From Schmidtea polychroa (Eukaryota), in the NCBI GenBank assembly GCA_044892525.1, contig CM097885.1, positions 215,884,001-215,948,000 of the forward strand: a stretch of DNA of 64,000 nucleotides, given 5' to 3'. A program made the translations under genes and the position numbers. Each line of letters begins with the position of its first letter. The first letter of the stretch is position 1. The notes beneath the pieces were generated by a model, which saw only the letters and a list, made by a program, of their open reading frames with translations, was not told where the DNA came from and did not search any database. Shown here piece by piece: positions 8,405 through 64,000 of the stretch.

Positions 8405-8699
8405 CTCGTCGGCAGTGGTAACTTGACCAAAACTATTTGACTAATCTGATCTAATGATATTGTGTTGCGTTTGACTTCATTAGTAGCTAGTATGACAAAT
8501 TGTAGAAATTTTTTTTTATTATAATTTTTATATTATAGTTTGTCGTGTGTCTTCATCATATAATAAATTATCTTTCTGTTATTACATTTAAGCCTTATAG
8601 CTTATGGGGTGTCTTCAGGGTTGAGGTGACCCTCCCTATCTTTCATCTATTAATTTTATGCAATTAATCGAATCACCTTTACGCTCATGAAAGCTGGCT

Positions 8700-9167
8700 A
8701 TGGAATTTTATTATTGTCTTCATTCAGTGTACAAATTACTCGAAAATCTACGCAAGGACCGCGAACAGGCCCAGCAACAAGTCGAAGACCTTCGAAGTCG
8801 GGTCGAGAAGCTCAAAGTCAAGTGCCGAGAACTCGAAGGTACTTGGTTCAGTCCGGCTGAGATGAAGAAACGAACAACACACATCTCACAACTCCAGACC
8901 CAGGCGGAGCAGAATCAACTCGAAATCCGAACACTGAAGATACAAGTGCACTCGCTCGAGAGCAAACTGAAAGAAAGGTTCATCCAGGACACTCTCCGAG
9001 AGCAGATTCGCCCACTTCCCGTGGAGCTGGCCAAGATATACCCACCAGCCCAGGCAAGCAAGCCGAAACGCAAACGGCTAGGGCGGAATACACGAGAAAA
9101 ATTGAAAAGGGCCTGGCTGGCCGAGCAAGCAAAAGCGAAAGAGCCTGAAGCCACTCCACAATCCTGA
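8700..9167 (+). CDS. LEGTWFSP coiled-coil protein, subtype A, open frame
   Basis: 155-aa ORF with heptad-rich KLLENLRKDREQAQQQ...LEGTWFSPAEMKKR...QLQTQ and a basic tail KPKRKRLGR. An AG acceptor near 8727 suggests an upstream exon; AATAAA at ~9228. Confidence 0.75.
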   Translation: MEFYYCLHSVYKLLENLRKDREQAQQQVEDLRSRVEKLKVKCRELEGTWFSPAEMKKRTTHISQLQTQAEQNQLEIRTLKIQVHSLESKLKERFIQDTLREQIRPLPVELAKIYPPAQASKPKRKRLGRNTREKLKRAWLAEQAKAKEPEATPQS

Positions 9168-14160: not shown

Positions 14161-14961
14161 ATGGATTTAGTCGAATTATGTTTACCTTTATTTTTCTTTA
14201 CAGTCACCAATATGTTACCACGCACGAAATCGCCCCTCAAACCCTGCTTCTCCTGTGCAGACAAAAACGTCGTAATCAAAGATTTACAGACCCAGATCGG
14301 TCGATACAAAAAGAGAATCGACGATCTGGAAGGTACATGGTTTAGCCCAGTACAAATGAAAGAGGTACAGAAGAAGCTGTACCGTAGTGAGCATTGCCGT
14401 GATGTCCTGATCAATGAAAGCAGATCCCAACGCAGTTTGATAAAAGAGCAGTCAGAGGCTCTTCATAAAGTTTATTTACAGGCGGCTACCACCCGGAAGA
14501 TCGTGAGTATCCCTATTAGTGAAGCGGACAATATCTTTCCCGTCCACCATGTCCCTTCGTTCAGTTCACCGCCTTCATCCAAGAAGACTTGTCGTGAGTG
14601 CGTGGAAGCCGACCTCTCTCTCAGGCCATCTAATATGCCTATTACCGGAACTAGTAAGGTGTTACCATCGTCTACGACCACCTCTGTAGCGTCATCGAAT
14701 ACTATGATCATCTCGAAACCCAAGCGTCGCCAACTGTCGAGGGAGGAACGCAAAAAGAAGCAACGTGAACGGGCAGTTGCTAAACAAAATAAACCAGCTT
14801 CGGACAACACAACTACTCTCGACGATCCCCCGGTAACGATCGATCTGACAGTAGGGATCCCAGGGCGAATCATCTCTGCCGCTGGTGTGACTTGGGAGGA
14901 AAATGCCTCCGAGTTCTTCGATTTAGACGAATTGCTGGCTGACACGGAATGGGAGAAATGA
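14161..14961 (+). CDS. LEGTWFSP coiled-coil protein, subtype B (CxxC N-terminus, Ser/Thr/Pro-rich and basic region, acidic tail)
   Basis: 266-aa ORF. The likely true start is the ATG at 14212 just after a ttacag acceptor. Motifs KPCFSCADKN, LEGTWFSPVQMK, KPKRRQLSREERKKKQR and FFDLDELLADTEWEK. Confidence 0.75.
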   Translation: MDLVELCLPLFFFTVTNMLPRTKSPLKPCFSCADKNVVIKDLQTQIGRYKKRIDDLEGTWFSPVQMKEVQKKLYRSEHCRDVLINESRSQRSLIKEQSEALHKVYLQAATTRKIVSIPISEADNIFPVHHVPSFSSPPSSKKTCRECVEADLSLRPSNMPITGTSKVLPSSTTTSVASSNTMIISKPKRRQLSREERKKKQRERAVAKQNKPASDNTTTLDDPPVTIDLTVGIPGRIISAAGVTWEENASEFFDLDELLADTEWEK

Positions 14962-22947: not shown

Positions 22948-23166
22948 TTTTTGATAATGTTCTGTAGCGTTGACTATTATTACTATTGACTATAATTTTC
23001 CTTAACGTTGACAGTCCCATAAGGTTTGGTATGATTCATAGAACTCGGTTTAGGTGCGCGTAGAGGAGGGCTGCGACGAGGAGATCACATTCATTTAGTA
23101 TTGATGCTCATAATAATGCTCGACACTCGATGCTGACGTGAAAATTACTAATGTTGTCTTGTTTTA

Positions 23167-23649
23167 GTGCTAAAACTCCTGGAAGAGATGCGAGCAGATA
23201 GAGAGCGGGCGCAGCAACAGGCAGAGGAATACCGGGCCAAACTAGCACGAGTCAAGGCCCATTGCCGGAATTTCGAATGTACCTGGTTCCCGCCAGCAGA
23301 AATGAAAAAACGGATGAAGCTGATCACTCAACTGCAACTCCAGAGTGCACAGGATCAGGTTGAGTTACGGGCCCTCCGCCTGAAAGTGAAGGAGCTAGAG
23401 ATCAAGGTACACCAACAGGACCTTGATCGAGAGGTCATTTCCAAGATCCGACCCATGAGTGAGCTACTCCACATACCGAAGGAGTGCACCCCACCAATAA
23501 TTCCGAGGAAGAAGATCCGGCCGGGTAAAGCGGCGCGGGCGAGAATAAGACAAGCCAGCCAGGCCCAATTAACGCTTCATTCTGCTGGGTCAGAGTCTAC
23601 TCCGAAAGAATCGACTAGGACACTATATATTCTGATCATGTTTTCCTAA
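23167..23649 (+). CDS. LEGTWFSP-family coiled-coil protein, subtype A, open frame
   Basis: 160-aa ORF with FECTWFPPAEMKKR, QLQLQSAQDQVELRALRLKVKELE and a basic tail PRKKIRPGK. AATAAA overlaps the stop codon. Confidence 0.75.
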   Translation: MLKLLEEMRADRERAQQQAEEYRAKLARVKAHCRNFECTWFPPAEMKKRMKLITQLQLQSAQDQVELRALRLKVKELEIKVHQQDLDREVISKIRPMSELLHIPKECTPPIIPRKKIRPGKAARARIRQASQAQLTLHSAGSESTPKESTRTLYILIMFS

Positions 23650-25217: not shown

Positions 25218-25607
25218 AAGGTAATATATTTTTGACAAAAATCTTCTTTTAGATGGAGCTCATATAATAGATCATTTAAAATTATTTTAGTATTTACCAA
25301 AAAACAATCTTAATACCAATGAAGCGAGTTCTTTTGCTTAAATCACTTATAACAAAATTTCTTATAACAAAATTTATATTACTAAAAACATCAATAATTA
25401 ATTCTAAGAAAAATTTTCAGATTTGAAATAAAATATTATTCCAAATTATTACATTTTTGATTATTTGTTTAAACCTAATATTTTAATTTCAAATTTTATT
25501 AAGAGTTAAAAATTAATAAATTATAGAAATATTGTTTACTGTATTATTAAACTATTTTTGTAAATAAATTATTAAATAATTATTAAAATATACTACAATT
25601 TTAGATA

Positions 25608-26456
25608 ATGTTGACAATATCATCAAAGGTTTCTTTAATCGGCATGTTATGTGGAATTTTCCAAATTGCTATTGTGAAATTTTTTTATGTTTTCGGAGTT
25701 CAAAATTACATTCCAATTGCAGTACCTGTAATGTTTATTATATCATCGTATTATTTTATTTCTCACTTTCAAAGCAACACTGACAATTTTCAGAAATTGA
25801 ACTTTTTCTGTGCATTTTTACTAGGAAGCATAACATCAATGGCTATTTTTCTTATGCTCAATCTGCCAAATCATTCTATTTTTGCGATATATATCATACA
25901 GTTGTGTTTTTTCCACTGGTCCGAGTTTTTTTTGTCGTCTCTGAGTAATCCTAATGGACTTAAAATCGATCTTTATATGCTTAATCATTCTACAGAATAT
26001 AAAATTGCTTTATTATTAAGTGTTTTTGAATATTGGACAGAAAAAATTTATTTTCCGGAGGCTTTTGAAAAGCTCAGATGGCTGTCTTATTCAGGCTTGC
26101 TTATTAGTATCCTTGGTGAATTGTTGAGGAAAATATCTTTATGGACAGCTGGTCAAAATTTCAATCATTACGTGGAATTTAGAAAACGTGATGACCATGT
26201 ATTAGTTCGAAATGGAGTTTATAATTGGTTTCGACATCCTTCTTATGTTGGATGGTTCTACTTCAGCGTAGGAACTCAAGTGGCCTTATTAAATCCAATC
26301 TGCTTGATTGGTTATACCGTAGCTTCATGGTCATTTTTTTACAGTCGAATTTATGAAGAAGAGCAATGTTTACTTCGTTTTTTTGGTGAAGATTATTTGA
26401 ATTACCAAGAAGAAGTTGGTACAGGATTGCCTTTTATTCGAGGTTTTCGTAAATGA
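25608..26456 (+). CDS. ICMT: Protein-S-isoprenylcysteine O-methyltransferase (Ste14/ICMT), intronless
   Basis: 282-aa multi-TM ORF with FFHWSEF, LLNHS-like MLNHSTEY, TAGQNFNH, HVLVRNGVYNWFRHPSYVGWFY and RIYEEE..L..FFGEDY...TGLPFI. Confidence 0.97.
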   Translation: MLTISSKVSLIGMLCGIFQIAIVKFFYVFGVQNYIPIAVPVMFIISSYYFISHFQSNTDNFQKLNFFCAFLLGSITSMAIFLMLNLPNHSIFAIYIIQLCFFHWSEFFLSSLSNPNGLKIDLYMLNHSTEYKIALLLSVFEYWTEKIYFPEAFEKLRWLSYSGLLISILGELLRKISLWTAGQNFNHYVEFRKRDDHVLVRNGVYNWFRHPSYVGWFYFSVGTQVALLNPICLIGYTVASWSFFYSRIYEEEQCLLRFFGEDYLNYQEEVGTGLPFIRGFRK

Positions 26457-52162: not shown

Positions 52163-55100
52163 TGTTTACATTTCAGCTATTATAGATGTACAGAATGTAG
52201 AAGACAAAAAATAGCAAAAAAGGTAATTGTTTTTGAGAGAGATTTGTTTTTAAAAAAACGAAATATATAATAACTGATAATAACTTTATTGAAGAATGCT
52301 ATACTGCCCGACACTATTTTTAGCACAGTAAGAAATTTCGTTACAAAATCATGAATAATGTAATAAATGAAATAAATTTTGTATGATTGTAATTAATATA
52401 GTAATACTTTTAATAATTATCACTACTTAGACATATATTATTTTTTGCATAAATAATATTTGAATTCTTAGGTTTTTTAAAAATTAAAATACGACACAAT
52501 TTTTAGCACACTTTAAAGATTTTTAAGTATTAATAATTTAAACCTATTTTTTTATACTACTTTATATGATTTTAATGTTTATAATAATTTTAGAATTGAT
52601 TATGAGATCTCCAGATTTAAAGAAAGTTGCTATAAAGATGAAACAGGAAGGTAACAGTTATGGTGTAATTGGCACCATTTTGGGCATGTCTAGATATGCT
52701 GTTAAGAATTTAGTCACCTACAAATATGTGTTGCATAAACGCAAACGTGGAAACAGAAGAAAAATAAGTAAAGCAGACGCGTTATCCATCAAAAGAGAAA
52801 CTGCACGGATAACGAGAGCACAGGAAAAAGTTAATTCGCCCAAGATCAAGAGAAATTGTGGGCTAGCTGTATCAACAAGGACAGTACAAAGGTATATGCA
52901 GCTTGCTGGTATGAAATACGCAAAAAGTTATCACGAAATCATCCTATCTAAGAAACACAAGGAAGAAAGAATGAAAGTGATAACAGAATGGATTTCGACC
53001 AATCACATTTGGGAGAATACTATGTTCTCAGACGAAAAAAGGTTCACACTTGATGGACCAGATTGTTGGATGACATATATTCCGAAAACATCAAAATATG
53101 TGCGTAATATTCGGCAATGTCATGGAGGTGGAATTATGGTCTGGCTGATGATCCTTCCTAACGGACTTCTATCTTTCCACATGATAACTGGCAAATTTAA
53201 GTCGACCGATTACATTACCCTGTTGAAGACCTTTGCTGTGCCAATAATGAAAGTTAACGTAAAGAGGAATTTTTACTTCCAGCAAGACAATTGCACAGTA
53301 CACAAAGCACGGATTGTCCAAGATTATCTGAAATCAAGTAATATATCAACGATTACATGGCCGTCACGAAGTCCAGACTTGAACATAGTTGAGGATGTCT
53401 GGAAGATGATTTCAGATATGGTTTATGACGGACCGCAGTTCTTAAACATAGCTGTTTTAGAAAAAAAAATTACGGATGTCATATCTCTTATCAACTGTAC
53501 CAGGAGACATAAAATTTTGGATTTCTATGCATCAATAAGATTGAGACTGTGTAAAGTTCTGAGTAATCACGGAAATTTGTATAATTGTTAAGTATTAGTG
53601 TGTATAAATAAAGTGTGCTAAAAATTGTGTCGATTTTAATTTTTAAAAAACCTAAGAATTCAAATATTATTTATGCAAAAAATAATATATGTCTAAGTAG
53701 TGATAATTATTAAAAGTATTACTATATTAATTACAATCATACAAAATTTATTTCATTTATTACATTATTCATGATTTTGTAACGAAATTTCTTACTGTGC
53801 TAAAAATAGTGTCGGACAGTATATAAGGGTACAAATAGATCTATGCGAGATCGAAACCTACCTTATGCTCGACTTAAATGACCTTGATTCATATTGAGCA
53901 ATGATATTGACTATGAAGGCTTTTATAAAACCTGTACTATTATAGTTTTTTAGGGGATCCATTTTAAATCTGATTAAATGATTTTATCTAGTTTTTTCTG
54001 AAATAATTGTCTCTCTCATCATATCAGACTGATTGTTTCACGGACAACATTTCTGATTGTTCCTTCCATGTACATTTATTAGCAAATGAAATCATTGGTT
54101 TAATAGGTATATCCACAATTTGCTAGATGATGTTTAGAATGTTTGGAAGGTAATGTCTTCTACGCTTTGATATTGAGGATAAGTTTTCAGCTTCTGTCTC
54201 TAACTCCTTACGAACTTTATGGGCGAAAGATCTGACAATTTCAACATGCCCTTTCATTTCTTGAGTATTTTGAGTGTCTGCCATTATTATTGTACTTCTC
54301 TAAAATATACTAAATTTAATAAAATACAGAATAAACAAGAAAAAGGCATGCCCCAAAATATCTTACGCATCCTGTGTTATTTATTTATCGTACAAAATTT
54401 ATAATAAGGATCTATGCATTTGAGAATATTAAAATTGAAAATTAATTCGTTTTAAGAATTTCTGTATCATTCGTTTCGTTAATAAATTAAAATGGTTCAA
54501 ATAAAAATAAACACTCTCCCAACAATAACTGTCTATCTGTCTATTTTTCATTGGGACTTTGTCAAATTTTCATGACATTTGGATAGTAAGAAGTTGAGTT
54601 GTGAAACATTAAGCGACACTGTTTTGCAAATAATTGCTATAAAATGACAGCTAGTTTGTGCTTCAAGATTTTCTGAATACATTTCTGAATCTTTTTGATA
54701 TAAGATTCCGCTTCATCCATTTTTCTATAAATTAATCAATTCTGTAGTTCCTTAGCTAACTATTGATTTTCTTCAAAAGCCAATTTTAGTTTTCATATAA
54801 ATCTTCTTTGGGAATTTTGTAATATTTGTTAGGACTATTTTCAAATATGCTAGTCTGCTGTTGTCCAATTGAATATATCTTTATCTGGGGAAATGTGGAT
54901 TAAGTAACAATACGCGAAGGATATATTAATGTAAAGCAGAATATATATTATTTAATTTTTTGTTCGAAATATATGTGCTCGTTCAGTAATGATTGCGTGA
55001 TCAGTGGATGCTTCTTGTACCATGCTTCGAGCCAAATGTATCGTTGTTAATTAGGAAATATATTTAGGTCTTATAAAGTGGATAAAACAATTTCAGACGA

Positions 55101-58710: not shown

Positions 58711-58769
58711 TAATGCTAGTAAGACATACAGATTCTCAACAATTGAAAAGGAATGTTACTCCATAATTT

Positions 58770-59242
58770 TCGCACTAAAATAATTCAAACCATACATATA
58801 TGAGACTAAATTTGTAATTAGAACAAATCATAAACAGTTAGAAGTGCTATGGAAACATAAAGATAAATTAAGTAGATTATTAAAATGGGCAATGACGATA
58901 GAAGATATGCACATTAAGATAGTATACAAACCATGTAGAATAAACAGAAATGCAGATGCGTTGTCATGAATTCCTGAGTTATGAGTGCTTGAAGTTTTTG
59001 CACTATTAACCATAAATCCAATTGAAATATATCAGGAACATAAGAAAGACCCAGAACTTTTAAAAATAAAAAAATTAAAAAGTTAAAAATATGTAAAAAA
59101 TAATTATTATTGAATAGTAGTGCCACAAAAATTGAGACATATTCTTCTTCTGCAATACCATGACGATGTTTTAGGAGGTTGCCTGTTAAGCAGAAAAACA
59201 GCAAGTAGACTGTTACAAAAATATTATTAGGTTGATCTAAGG
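58770..59242 (+). mobile_element. Gypsy pol fragment (end of RNase H, start of integrase)
   Basis: FVIRTNHKQL..L...SRLLKWAM..IVYKPCRINRNADALS and IVVPQKLRH.LL.QYHDDVLGG...YY; interrupted by a hAT end at 59243. Confidence 0.85.
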
Positions 59243-59340
59243 CAGTGGTTCCCAAACTTTTCCGTCTGGCGGACCGGTATAAAACTTTCAGATAGCACCA
59301 GGGACCGGTGCGACATTTACCAATTATTTTTTTATTTAAC
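59243..59340. mobile_element. hAT terminus / MITE end
   Basis: CAGTGGTTCCCAAACTTTTCC...GCGGACCGG...GGGACCGG. Confidence 0.6.
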
Positions 59341-59639: not shown

Positions 59640-60849
59640 CTGTAAATTACCTCCCCTACGACTCTAGCAAATGCGCCTCGTTCTGAAAAGAGCATTGGGG
59701 CCATTAAGTCTGGATTCGTGATAGCTAATGCCATTTTTGTTCTTAGGATTTCTCGATTGAGTTTGCAGTCATTGATGACAGTTTCCTGGTAGACTTTGTC
59801 TAGTTGCATTAGTTGATGATGATAGAAGTAATCTATCTTATTATTAAAATATGATGAAAGTTTAATATCGTATTTATTAATTTTTATCTTTGGATCTCTT
59901 ATTCATCTTTGCTTAAATATATATCCTTGTAGTTGGTCTGTATTATTGATTTCCCACATTTAACACTTTCTCCTTTACTAACAAATCTCATTGCTTCTCC
60001 TGAAGGTTCTGTCATATATGTCGTTGGTGTGTATCTTTTTCTTGAATTACGATTGTTTTTCGTTTTTTGTCTCTTGCTTTCATGGATTCTGAATTTGTGA
60101 ATTGTTTACCTTTTATTGTCATGAATTTTAACGATTTTAATTTGGTCAAGGGACATTCATATGCATCAACTTTATATATTACCATTGATTCTACCGTATC
60201 ACAACTTATGTCTTTTGCTGTACAAAATGGGTAAGTCATCATCTTCTGTGTCACACTATAGAACAATGCCTTGAACTTTCTGAGTTCGACTATATATTCA
60301 CGTCTTACTATACCGTTTTCTATAGTATGTCTCCATATCTTGTATTTTCAACCTTGACAATATCCGCCAAGCAAAGACCATCCGACAAGATCAACTCGCT
60401 GTTTTACACATGCATCAATCTGTGCTTTTAATTCGATATCGTGTATTTTTATCTTTTTTGATTGAAATGCATTTTCGCATTCCTGTGGGGTTATCGTAAT
60501 GGTATCAGGTGTGAATATCGGGTCTTAATATCGTCCGTGCTATATTATGGCACACAAAAGTCTCCTCTGAATATTTTATTATGCATTCTCTCGCTTCGGA
60601 GTGTTTAAAATCTGATTCTTGATACACATGAAATAATTTTGGTTTGGTTGTAATTAAATTAATTGGATTCGCTTCTGGACAGTTTTCAATATCTAATAGT
60701 GAGTATTTTTGTCCCCATTTTGGGTTTTGACAGTCATATGCTATCATGCCTGTACATCCTTTTATCATACCTAATAATATTGCCATTATTATTATTATTA
60801 TTATTATAGACATTAACGATCTCCGGTAAGTTTTCCCTGATTTTTTCAT
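59640..60849 (-). pseudogene. Class III fusion glycoprotein (chuvirus-G-like env), frameshifted and 3'-truncated
   Basis: Hydrophobic signal (SIIIIIIIMAILLGM) then IAYDC..KYSLLDIENC, ECII...FVC, TITPQECENA, GGYCQG, and NNKIDYFYHHQ...DCKLNREIL...NPDLMAPML...GAFARVVGEVIY. This cysteine/motif order matches chuvirus-type glycoproteins. Confidence 0.85.
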
Positions 60850-61400
60850 TGTTTATTTATTATATTCTTCAGTTTCCTTTCAATTTCTTTGTCATCAATA
60901 TATTGTTTCTCTGTGTTTACTTCTGTCAAAGTATTTTCATCACATAAGATTTTCCACCCTCCATTTTTATGTATCCAAGGTATCGCATTCTTTTACAGTT
61001 TCGTAAGTATCCTTTCAGCTATTTTACTTAGTTCTATTGGCTTTGTCTTTAAAATATTCTCTGATCTATAAATAAGATATGCAATTGCTGTTATGACTCG
61101 ATTCTAATCAATTCAGCTTCCTGTTTCATTAATTCTCTAATCTCCGGCTCTAGAAATTTTAATTTCTCATGTATACTAATAATAAATGTTGGAGATTTTA
61201 CATCTACATACAATTTTGGGTACATGATTTTGATTAACTCTATTAGAATATCAGCATCTTTATCTTTTAATGACGACTTATTAGCTATTTTTTTCAGTTT
61301 CTCGGCAACGTTATTATTCTTTGATCTCTTTTCGTCTAATATTGTGGGCATTATGCCTCCTATGGCTTCTCTTGAAGTTTCTTTTAAACTTAGTTTTGAA
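60846..61400 (-). pseudogene. Bcl-2-family domain (BH1 and BH2), one frameshift and two stops
   Basis: After EAEL the shifted frame reads (N)*NRVITAIAY (BH1-like; TAG at the W position), then helical ELSKIAERILTKL*KNAIP and WIHKNGGW (BH2, 60954-60977). Confidence 0.8.
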
Positions 61401-61444
61401 ATTTCTCTATTAATTACTCCTTCATCTGAAGTTACTTCTACATG

Positions 61445-61693
61445 TCTTTTTACTAAACTGTTATCACATTATTTTCACTTGAGTTTATTCCATAATCCAT
61501 TAAACAATCTTCATTTTCCATCCTCATCCCATAAAAATATAATATTATTTCACCATGTATTCCTAATTTATTATGCCACTTGGCTCTTGCTATTTGTTTT
61601 AATTTTTTTTACTTTTGTACAAGCGTGTATTCCTTTTCCATGAATAATTATTCTAGATTTATCTCTTTCATCTGTCTTTAGAGAGATCTCTAG
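61445..61693 (-). pseudogene. Ubiquitin-like domain, frameshifted
   Basis: Reconstructed LEISLKT...SRIIIHG...TKVKKLKQIARAKW..KLGIHGEIILYFYGMRMENEDCLMDYGINSSENNVITVLVKR parallels ubiquitin [40 protein letters not shown]. Confidence 0.7.
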
Positions 61694-61730
61694 TGGTCTA
61701 TGTAATCTTTCGTTTTTTCGAATATATTCA

Positions 61731-62885
61731 CTATAACATCTCCTTTATCTCGATTTCAAGTTCAAACAATTGAGTTTCTTGTTGTTTCTTCGCTAAAAGC
61801 GGTATTAAATTTCCCAGACTCTCAAGGTCCGTTACTTCCATTTGAATTTTATTTATTATTCGTAATGTCTCACTATCACCTACTAGATAATTTTTCAAAG
61901 ATTCCTCTAATTCTTGTCTCAAAATATTCTGTCTATCTAACTCTGCTAATAATTTTTCATCTCTTTCTCTTTGCTCTCTTAATTCTTCATTGTCTAATCT
62001 AACTTCATTTGTATACGCTTTAAATTCGCTTATTGATACATCAATTTTATTTCTTTCAATCAATCTCTCATATTTTGTCTTAAATTCGTTTAATTCATCT
62101 CTCAAAATTTCAATTTCCATACTATTTATTTGTTTTATTTCAGGGTCATTTTTAAATTGAACTCTATTCGGAGATTCGACTCGTATATTTCTACATGTTT
62201 TCACCATATGACCATATTTATGACAGTTAAAACACCTTATTTCCCCTCGAAAATCAACTCTATCTCTTCCATTATTACTAAATGGACTAGGTCGTCTATT
62301 TCTATTGAAAATCTGTTGATTGGGACTCATTCTTCCTCAAAAATTGTTTCTATTTGACTCAACATCATTTCTGTTATCTCCTTTTCTATTTCTATCAAAT
62401 CGATTTGTTCGCGTATATTCGAAATAATTATTCCTATTATTCTGATTATCACTGAAACGATTATTTCGATTATTCGATTTATCCCTTGGACTATTAAATT
62501 TATTACTGTTATCAAAATTACGACTTGGACTTGGACTAGACTTTCTTCTATTCTTAACATAATTAAGATACAACTGTTTCATTTCCTCCCAAGGAATGTC
62601 GTCATCTTTATCAATTGACTTTGTTTTATCTTTTTAAACCTAAATTTCTACTGCTTCCATCGCAGAATTAAATCTATCTTTTTGTATCGCTTCAATTCTT
62701 CGTGCCTTTTGTACTAACTCATTTAGGTTTCCATATTCTACCCTTATCAAAGATTTATATAAATGTTTTTGAGTATCATTCATAATTGGTCCTCTATTAA
62801 TCTTGTAGTGTGTTCTCCAACACCAAAGGCTTTTCGAGCTCACTCAGTTAAATTAAAAACATATTCACCAATTATTTCTCTACTA
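61731..62885 (-). pseudogene. Retroelement Gag (capsid C-terminus, Arg/Asn/Ser-rich region, CCHC knuckle) followed by a long coiled coil
   Basis: EYVFNL..ARKAFG...LNELVQKARRIEA (capsid CTD-like) and CFNCHKYGHMVKTC (CX2CX4HX4C). No protease DTG/DSG motif follows. The 5' part is cut by the hAT at 62886. Confidence 0.85.
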
Positions 62886-64000
62886 CAGGGGTGGCGAACC
62901 TTTTTTAGATTGCGTGCCAATATTTTAAAATTGAAAAATAAAAACACGCTGGCGTGCCAAGTACATTTTTTAGCATTTTAATTGATTCCATTACATACCA
63001 TGTGTTCACATTAAATGTTTCAAGTCTAGTTTAGTCAAAAAGAATAGTTATAACTACAATTTTAACAAAACTACAATTACTATAATAGTATAACTTTACT
63101 ATAAGAATATATTTAACGTGATTTAGTGACTTAGTAAAATCAATGTGACTTTTGCTGTTGTGTGGTGGATGATAGAAGTTTTATATCTGGAGAATATTTT
63201 GTATTCTTCAAAGCCACACAAGCTGCACTCAAGTTGTCAGTCAAACTGTTTCTGGTATCTGATTTTATAAAGTTCATCGATGAAAACAATGATTCGCACG
63301 AGTAAAAAAGAAAATTGACAAAATCGCAATCGCTACTTTTTTCAGAGAGTTGAAAGTTTCAGGAAGACAATTCCAGACTCTGAACACCTCGTTTCAGCTG
63401 GTATCTGCGGTTCTGATCCATTGCAGCGCTCTCATTCAATTCTATCTAGTCGCACTCGTAAGTCAACAAACCTTTGCTTCCAAATTGAGCTGGACTGTAG
63501 CTCAACTAACTGCATTTCAAAAACTTGTAATTCCATCCAGTCGATCATTGTTAAATCCAAATTTTTAAACTCGACTGTTTTTTAAAAATTTTGTTGTGTC
63601 TTCAAACTTTCTAAACTGAACAAAACGCACTGAAAATTGTTCGAGGGTTGCGTCGATTGTCTCTAAAAATAACAAAATCTGAGCTTCTTTGACAACGGTT
63701 TAATGGATTTCTATTTCAGTATAAAATCTTTTAAGTCTTTGAAAATATTGAAACTCTTGTTTTCCAAATCACATTTGAAATTTTCAACTTCTTTTCAAAT
63801 GCTTTTATAACGCCAAAAGCCTCGTCAACGGTTTTTCCAAAACCTTGTTATGTTAATTTAGATGTGAAGTAAAATCTGTAAAGAACATTAGTCTGCTGAG
63901 CCACTCAACATCAGTTAACTCTGAATACTTCTGTTTGTTGTCTTCCATAAACATTCGAATTTCATCAAGGCATTCCACGAAACGTTCCAGCACATGACCT
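62886..64000 (-). mobile_element. hAT (GTF2IRD2/EPM2AIP1-like) element, 3' portion, continuing beyond the window
   Basis: Terminus CAGGGGTGGCGAACC at 62886; minus-strand LERFVECLDEIRMF, WLSRLMFFTDFTSHLN and CESLFSSMNFIKSDTRNSLTD. Confidence 0.88.

Follow-up and report, generated by a model that had tools for sequence, protein, structure and literature searches.

The window, by which we mean the whole stretch of 64,000 nucleotides of Schmidtea polychroa DNA that was analysed, has on its minus strand, at 59646-62885, a degraded piece of a Ty3/gypsy element that bears an env; this is almost certainly a dead Burro-like copy with a domain of the Bcl-2 type. On the reading that we favour by a modest degree, the window holds a broken remnant, and in unbroken Burro-like Ty3/gypsy copies the domain lies between Gag and Env, is likely tethered to a cell membrane through the signal stretch of Env and likely serves to dampen the death of the host cell. 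The preliminary description had presented the domain as hidden; it is instead a decayed copy of a polyprotein domain that the published account of Burro elements, as far as its relevant sections go, had already noted (PMC6431247). The window copy is itself a fossil, and its family is of modest importance.

Layout and decay of the window copy

Six-frame reading recovers the minus-strand frame from which the preliminary description started (61468-61091, ending in LIRIES and a stop) and, in another frame, the TAG, the NRVITAIAY that follows it and, 34 residues past the Y, WIHKNGGW (Table 1). Alignments also bear out the proposed register, as the TAG falls in the Trp column of BH1. The nature of the break differs from the one-base shift that had been suggested: compared with L002, the closest natural copy (89% identity; a genome DNA search gave 32 matches from 30 scored candidates), 37 bases are missing at the break point, a loss that puts the sequence out of frame and takes with it predicted helix 4 and the first part of BH1. 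Between BH1 and BH2 lies a second stop that had been overlooked, and many further indels separate the two copies besides the 37-base loss, this second stop and a one-base loss in the linker. The apparent lack of a transmembrane anchor is probably an artefact of decay, because that one-base loss parts the domain from a hydrophobic stretch at 60816-60763 which is present in the window and in-frame in unbroken copies; in L002 the domain, the hydrophobic stretch and Env read through without a stop.

Table 1. Coordinates of the element fragment, its damage and neighbouring features in the window
Feature	Position	Strand	Basis or remark
Inverted RNase H-integrase fragment of a related element	58715..59245	+	Pfam RT_RNaseH E 1.3e-6; 75% DNA identity to young subfamily
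Broken N-terminal half of Env, Monjiviricetes-type fusion glycoprotein, cut off at 59646	59646..60747	-	Pfam PF24664; border by blastn
Hydrophobic stretch; likely both the signal sequence of Env and a tail anchor for the Bcl-2-like domain	60748..60816	-	hydropathy; in-frame in unbroken copies
Charged linker from BH2 to hydrophobic stretch	60817..60926	-	one-base loss near 60851 ends frame
Bcl-2-like remnant, C-terminal part (damaged BH1, helices 5-8, BH2)	60927..61112	-	six-frame reading; Pfam Bcl-2 E 0.0028; 90% identity to L002
BH2, WIHKNGGW	60977-60954	-	six-frame reading
Stop codons in C-terminal part of Bcl-2-like remnant	61106-61104 (TAG), 60995-60993	-	
Break point, 37 bases fewer than L002	61104..61112	-	comparison with L002
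Bcl-2-like remnant, N-terminal part (predicted helices 1-3)	61112..61339	-	tblastn against unbroken natural copy L002; helix order from L002 model
SUMO/ubiquitin-like domain remnant	61456..61608	-	weak Pfam Rad60-SLD E 0.059, ubiquitin E 0.065; E 0.0074 in unbroken relative
Broken gag: capsid-end region, CCHC zinc knuckle (about 62234-62193), coiled coil	61734..62885	-	Pfam, tblastn, blastn
DNA transposon inside gag, about 1.55 kb, 8-base target duplication	62886..64000	.	gag picks up again about 430 bases beyond window end

Two of the three Env pieces scanned match PF24664 (E 2.7e-8 and 1.4e-14), and the zf-CCHC match, at E 0.065 in the window gag, reaches 4.8e-5 in a relative. No LTR was found beside the window copy, which is an internal fragment. 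The transposon that interrupts gag is presumably hAT-like, judging from its 8-base duplication and a peptide that we take to be transposase-like. Elsewhere in the window, three related coiled-coil frames on the plus strand (8691-9167, 14161-14961 and 23152-23649) have a TWF-P motif in common and occupy higher-GC stretches; a 349-aa open frame at 52542-53591 (+) has what we take to be the look of a Tc1/mariner transposase, and a 283-aa single-exon frame at 25605-26456 (+) presumably resembles isoprenylcysteine carboxyl methyltransferase.

The window copy cannot encode the Bcl-2-like domain. That it might still yield a Bcl-2 protein through frameshifting or readthrough has a negligible probability: one other copy, L012, shares the stop at the BH1 Trp column, but the 37-base loss, two stops within the domain, many indels, the transposon in gag and the truncated env all stand against it, and it is contradicted by the missing predicted helix 4 and half of BH1.

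The Bcl-2-like domain and its unbroken relatives

When a subfamily B protein was used as query, 150 of 1,338 candidates were scored; most of these fall into C, a young group with about 50% identity, and 11 of the 150 scored matches sit in stop-free frames 3,051-3,090 codons long. One C element spans 13.4 kb; its 1,081-base LTRs agree at 99.7% identity, and its target duplication measures 4 bases. The young relative has the features of Ty3/gypsy (Metaviridae), namely LTRs with TG..CA ends, a target duplication and the order PR-RT-RH-IN. A single C frame of 3,056 aa runs through Gag, zinc knuckle, coiled coil, SUMO/ubiquitin-like domain, Bcl-2-like domain, putative hydrophobic anchor, Env, protease, RT, RNase H and integrase, and Pfam recovers zf-CCHC, Bcl-2 (E 2.9e-5), Env, protease, RT, RNase H and integrase in it; the SUMO-like match in an unbroken relative is weak (E 0.0074), and subfamily B shows the same domain order in broken form. 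Across the entire polyprotein and the second frame, Pfam gave no match to MATH, BIR or ankyrin at E up to 1. The young element is a compact, recently active relative of Burro. Contigs from sequencing runs only guessed to be RNA cover its pol and the env end.

Several side observations concern the same elements. The second frame, 722 aa in the young subfamily (L082:2168-4333 (-); L035:7180-8847 (+)), contains an ISG20-like exonuclease region for which a profile of five natural copies matched ISG20L2 (E 5e-4) and ISG20 (E 0.007) and Pfam gave nothing; RNase T-like Atlas matches at 0.88 are a lead only, and the catalytic residues look altered by eye. Ahead of the Bcl-2-like domain, the young subfamily has an RGRGRP motif (L080, polyprotein residue about 707) that we take to be AT-hook-like, with RGRP in the outside protein P0002 (below) and no such motif seen in subfamilies A and B. 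The L082 polyprotein continues for about 300 residues beyond integrase and ends in a third hydrophobic segment (residue about 2997), and at L085-L087 there is a tandem pair of young elements, spaced by 12.55 kb, that seem to have one LTR in common.

The Bcl-2 identity of the domain is supported at the level of sequence by several searches. An 88-residue piece of the window copy, with X at the stops, has Bcl-2 as its sole Pfam match (profile positions 50-100, E 0.0028), so that the profile search suggested earlier did find the family, albeit at 18.6 bits against the curated cut-off of 31.4 bits for PF00452. The BH2-like word occurs once in the window, compared with a mean of 0.01 in 100 base shuffles. 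Unbroken copies match at E 1.6e-6 to 0.013, under the curated cut-off, and the match spans mainly BH1-BH2; single scans of copies gave 13.5-29 bits, and the genome search 32-33 bits for a few of them. A profile of nine natural copies returned 104 PDB sequence matches at E up to 1, the best 60 of the 104 being Bcl-xL or Bcl-2 throughout and the top three aligning free of gaps from BH1 to BH2.

Structure prediction agrees with these matches, and the central proposal of the preliminary description, a Bcl-2-like domain on a mobile element, holds. AlphaFold2, run on L002 in an alignment with 16 more rows made up of element copies, P0001 and P0002, gave a model with pLDDT 75.5 and pTM 0.72, which P0001, a fragment at the Pfam Bcl-2 cut-off, may have aided. 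As anticipated, the model has eight helices, bundled around the central hydrophobic helix 5 as in the Bcl-2 superfamily; the window copy is without predicted helix 4. Foldseek placed Bcl-xL first (E 9.1e-4), and with VIA-align rows 1-35 among the best 50 were all of the Bcl-2 fold (best Z 12.2, rmsd 3.1 over 127 residues) and the first unrelated chain appeared at Z 5.0, although a Z close to 13 can arise by chance among helical bundles. In a viral library, viral Bcl-2 homologs came out on top, none at E < 0.001. An Atlas feature search with the domain gave unrelated matches only, under 0.9, and a single-sequence fold of the UBL-Bcl-2-anchor region had a pLDDT of 35.5. The domain of unbroken copies is predicted to adopt a Bcl-2 fold.

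What the copies do not have is the canonical NWGR form of BH1 that had been assumed for the window. Of 67 loci examined, 49 were readable (about 45 distinct places, with 24 of the loci being top-scoring C copies), and none has either the Trp or the Gly of the NWGR columns; the block reads GINGDRV in subfamily B and GVNRDKV in subfamily C. Nor do other copies restore Trp at the TAG column, from which it is absent in all eight aligned copies of the same subfamily, one of them with the same stop. A basic residue (Arg/Lys) of BH1 is seen in the alignment, having also been part of the search pattern for the locus count. In BH2 (W-x-x-x-x-GGW), the Trp and the Gly-Gly-Trp are invariant in alignments A1, A2 and A4. 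A library-wide profile search found two outside proteins, the distant P0002 having Gag, knuckle, ubiquitin-like, Bcl-2-like and Env regions in that order and having likewise lost the BH1 Trp-Gly; a word-based homolog search with alignment A1, aimed at longer proteins, found 0 among 8,000 candidates.

Between unbroken copies the Bcl-2-like domain is under purifying selection. Its dN/dS is 0.05-0.43 in seven of eight pairs (0.047 within C1, 0.12-0.13 for C1 against C2 and 0.15-0.43 between subfamilies), some of the dS values being close to saturation, and the eighth value, 0.83, comes from a near-identical B pair that is only 1% apart and uninformative. Among the young subfamilies, the domain (0.05-0.13) is more constrained than the adjacent linker (0.18-0.21), whereas Env, at 0.025-0.14, is tighter than the domain, which evolves faster.

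Besides Bcl-2 genes of the host type, the genome also has two multicopy Bcl-2-like genes located in Maverick-type elements. One host-type Bcl-2-like gene is 87% identical to a Schmidtea mediterranea entry, and, as a separate observation, seven near-identical host-type copies with canonical NWGR lie within 0.9 Mb (L098-L104, G000:C4, about 89.9-90.8 Mb). The two multicopy genes are dispersed (L113-L118 with L126-L127, and L120-L125); one combines an intron-like stretch, in-frame, with a hydrophobic tail, and the other has no intron. Both sit among Maverick/Polinton-type genes (ATPase Pox_A32, E 9e-7), next to frames that we take to be polymerase-, integrase- and capsid-like. A comparison with host Bcl-2 genes, which had been proposed as a check, succeeded in part: in a tree of 17 Bcl-2-like domains, the four element copies form one group (96/97), but the tree does not separate a host from a Maverick source (41/79). 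Best BLAST scores for the element domain lean weakly toward a Maverick-borne gene and the host gene L109.

Probable membrane anchor and possible function

In all six unbroken copies tested, a hydrophobic stretch (best 19-residue hydropathy 1.8-2.1) lies directly before the start of Env, 64-69 residues after BH2, and it is in-frame with the Bcl-2-like domain in L002, L027, L029, L057, L066 and L080. It is signal-peptide-like by eye, with basic residues ahead and small residues behind. At 64-69 residues, this linker exceeds the spacing ahead of the tail anchor in cellular Bcl-xL. Along the C polyprotein, hydrophobic segments fall at residues 913, 1482 and 2997. From this arrangement we consider the following topology probable. 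The polyprotein would enter the ER membrane at the first hydrophobic stretch, and signal peptidase would release Env into the ER lumen, between the first two segments; the Gag-coil-UBL-Bcl-2 part would remain on the cytosolic face, tail-anchored like cellular Bcl-2, and the C-terminal helix of Env would bring the chain back to the cytosol for protease, RT and integrase. With Env lumenal and the Gag side and Pol cytosolic, such a topology would explain why env is carried in-frame between gag and pol.

Once anchored, the domain might engage pro-death Bcl-2 proteins by way of a non-canonical groove, in which the BH1 Arg/Lys is kept and the Trp-Gly is lost. We judge an anti-apoptotic role to be evenly poised. 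It is suggested by a fold nearest to pro-survival proteins, by retention of the BH1 basic residue and of BH2, and by the reported protective effect of the BIR region of Burro1. In its favour too, vaccinia F1L keeps the Gly alone from NWGR, and in variola F1L the motif is replaced (PMC2836074, PMC9609553, in the sections concerned). It is opposed by the loss of the BH1 Gly, a residue reported as strongly conserved, and as essential in Bcl-2, KSHV Bcl-2 and F1L. Modelling the domain of the young subfamily together with a Bak-like BH3 stretch from the host, in which the alignment was not used, scored 0.00 and speaks neither for nor against binding.

The loss of Trp-Gly in every readable copy and in P0002 also favours the main rival, in which the Bcl-2 fold serves as a scaffold with no part in apoptosis, either as an Env-leader or matrix-like adaptor tying Gag to the membrane or as a blocker of innate signalling or autophagy. 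Vaccinia A52, B14, K7 and A46 are blockers of this latter sort built on the Bcl-2 fold. The constant position between Gag and the Env signal, across subfamilies that are 37-51% identical and in P0002, is consistent with such a role, as is the presence of poxviral scaffold proteins among the fold matches; those matches reach only Z 5.7-6.4, however, compared with Z 11-12 for pro-survival proteins, and the aligned subfamilies all retain the basic residue of BH1 as well as the Trp and Gly-Gly-Trp of BH2. We regard the scaffold as a possibility, and one we would not ourselves expect. It is improbable that the domain is a passenger, a captured host fragment retained merely as a folded spacer harmless to the polyprotein: it does diverge faster than Env, and stops would be purged from any in-frame polyprotein segment, but its dN/dS among young subfamilies falls below that of the adjacent linker and its BH motifs are kept across deep divergence.

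A fuller and more speculative version of the favoured reading, which we hold to be doubtful as a whole, is that in the compact active Burro relative one hydrophobic helix doubles as the signal peptide of Env and as a tail anchor for a Bcl-2-like protein whose BH1 has been rewired, and that the element would thereby offer a second, IAP-independent route to stem-cell survival beside an ISG20-like accessory.

Comparison with known systems

Arkhipova and Yushenova (2019, PMC6431247) describe the Burro elements (GYPSM1/Burro1-4), giant LTR elements of gypsy-like type found in Schmidtea mediterranea and Dugesia (Girardia) tigrina, as having a SUMO-like domain, a motif resembling BCL2 (for which they cite Grohme 2018) and an env in-frame between BCL2 and protease. 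The present elements share with them a single polyprotein in which Gag, a CCHC knuckle, a coiled coil, SUMO-like and BCL2-like domains and a mononegavirus-type env precede PR-RT-RH-IN. They differ in size: Burro exceeds 30 kb, with 4,873 aa and two to three knuckles (PMC6431247), and the young relative has 13.4 kb, 3,056 aa and a single knuckle. The young relative further shows no MATH, BIR or ankyrin in Pfam and has a downstream second frame with an ISG20-like region. We file the element as Burro-like because it works as Burro does and the signature order is common to both, even though it falls short of the Burro size and lacks Pfam matches to MATH, BIR and ankyrin; the assignment is made by domain order. 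Since the Burro account already has the BCL2-like domain and the in-frame env, our finding is of a known cargo, annotated in 2018-2019, in a known architecture. That a small, recently active relative keeps the Bcl-2 module, with no BIR, MATH or ankyrin matches, suggests that the module is a core part of such elements, and the compact relative makes it testable on its own.

The account of Burro in PMC6431247, in the sections concerned, has no discussion of a degenerate BH1 or of an anchor, and the consulted portions of PMC8532177, PMC13238120 and PMC11410931 add nothing further on the Bcl-2-like domain. Our literature search returned no test of the function of the Burro Bcl-2-like domain and no remark on a degenerate BH1 or shared anchor; Grohme 2018 and Lee 2026 fall outside its reach and may already describe the compact family or test the domain. 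Troyka was considered as an identity for the element and dropped, given its other termini and duplication length, and the relevant part of PMC12440569 leaves Bcl, Burro and flatworms unmentioned.

The GAG-ENV-POL errantiviruses of Platyhelminthes, Nematoda and Bryozoa are likewise Ty3/gypsy elements with env between gag and pol (PMC13524379), and the main text of that paper, to the extent covered, is silent on Burro, Bcl, Schmidtea and planarians. Adintoviruses are known to carry Bcl2 homologs (PMC8502044), and they and Mavericks resemble the present case in having a Bcl-2-like gene on a mobile element; the Maverick-type genes differ in belonging to DNA elements, in standing alone and in keeping the BH1 Trp. 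With Bcl-xL and other pro-survival Bcl-2 proteins (PF00452; PDB 4yj4, 6wgz), the element domain shares the predicted eight-helix fold, BH2, the ungapped BH1-BH2 spacing and a hydrophobic segment downstream, but its BH1 is without Trp and Gly and it lies within a polyprotein and is not a free protein.

A functional parallel is the RING plus BIR module of Burro1 (B-IAP; Lee et al. 2026, Dev Cell), whose BIR region is reported, as relayed in PMC13465017, to protect planarian stem cells from apoptosis. Both cases involve a planarian LTR element with a host-derived regulator of cell death, but the module tested there is RING plus BIR and not Bcl-2 (PMC13465017), and the compact element has no BIR match in Pfam. 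Should the Bcl-2 module indeed block apoptosis, retroelements would have acquired both of the main cell-death brakes, and this in an animal reliant on its adult stem cells.
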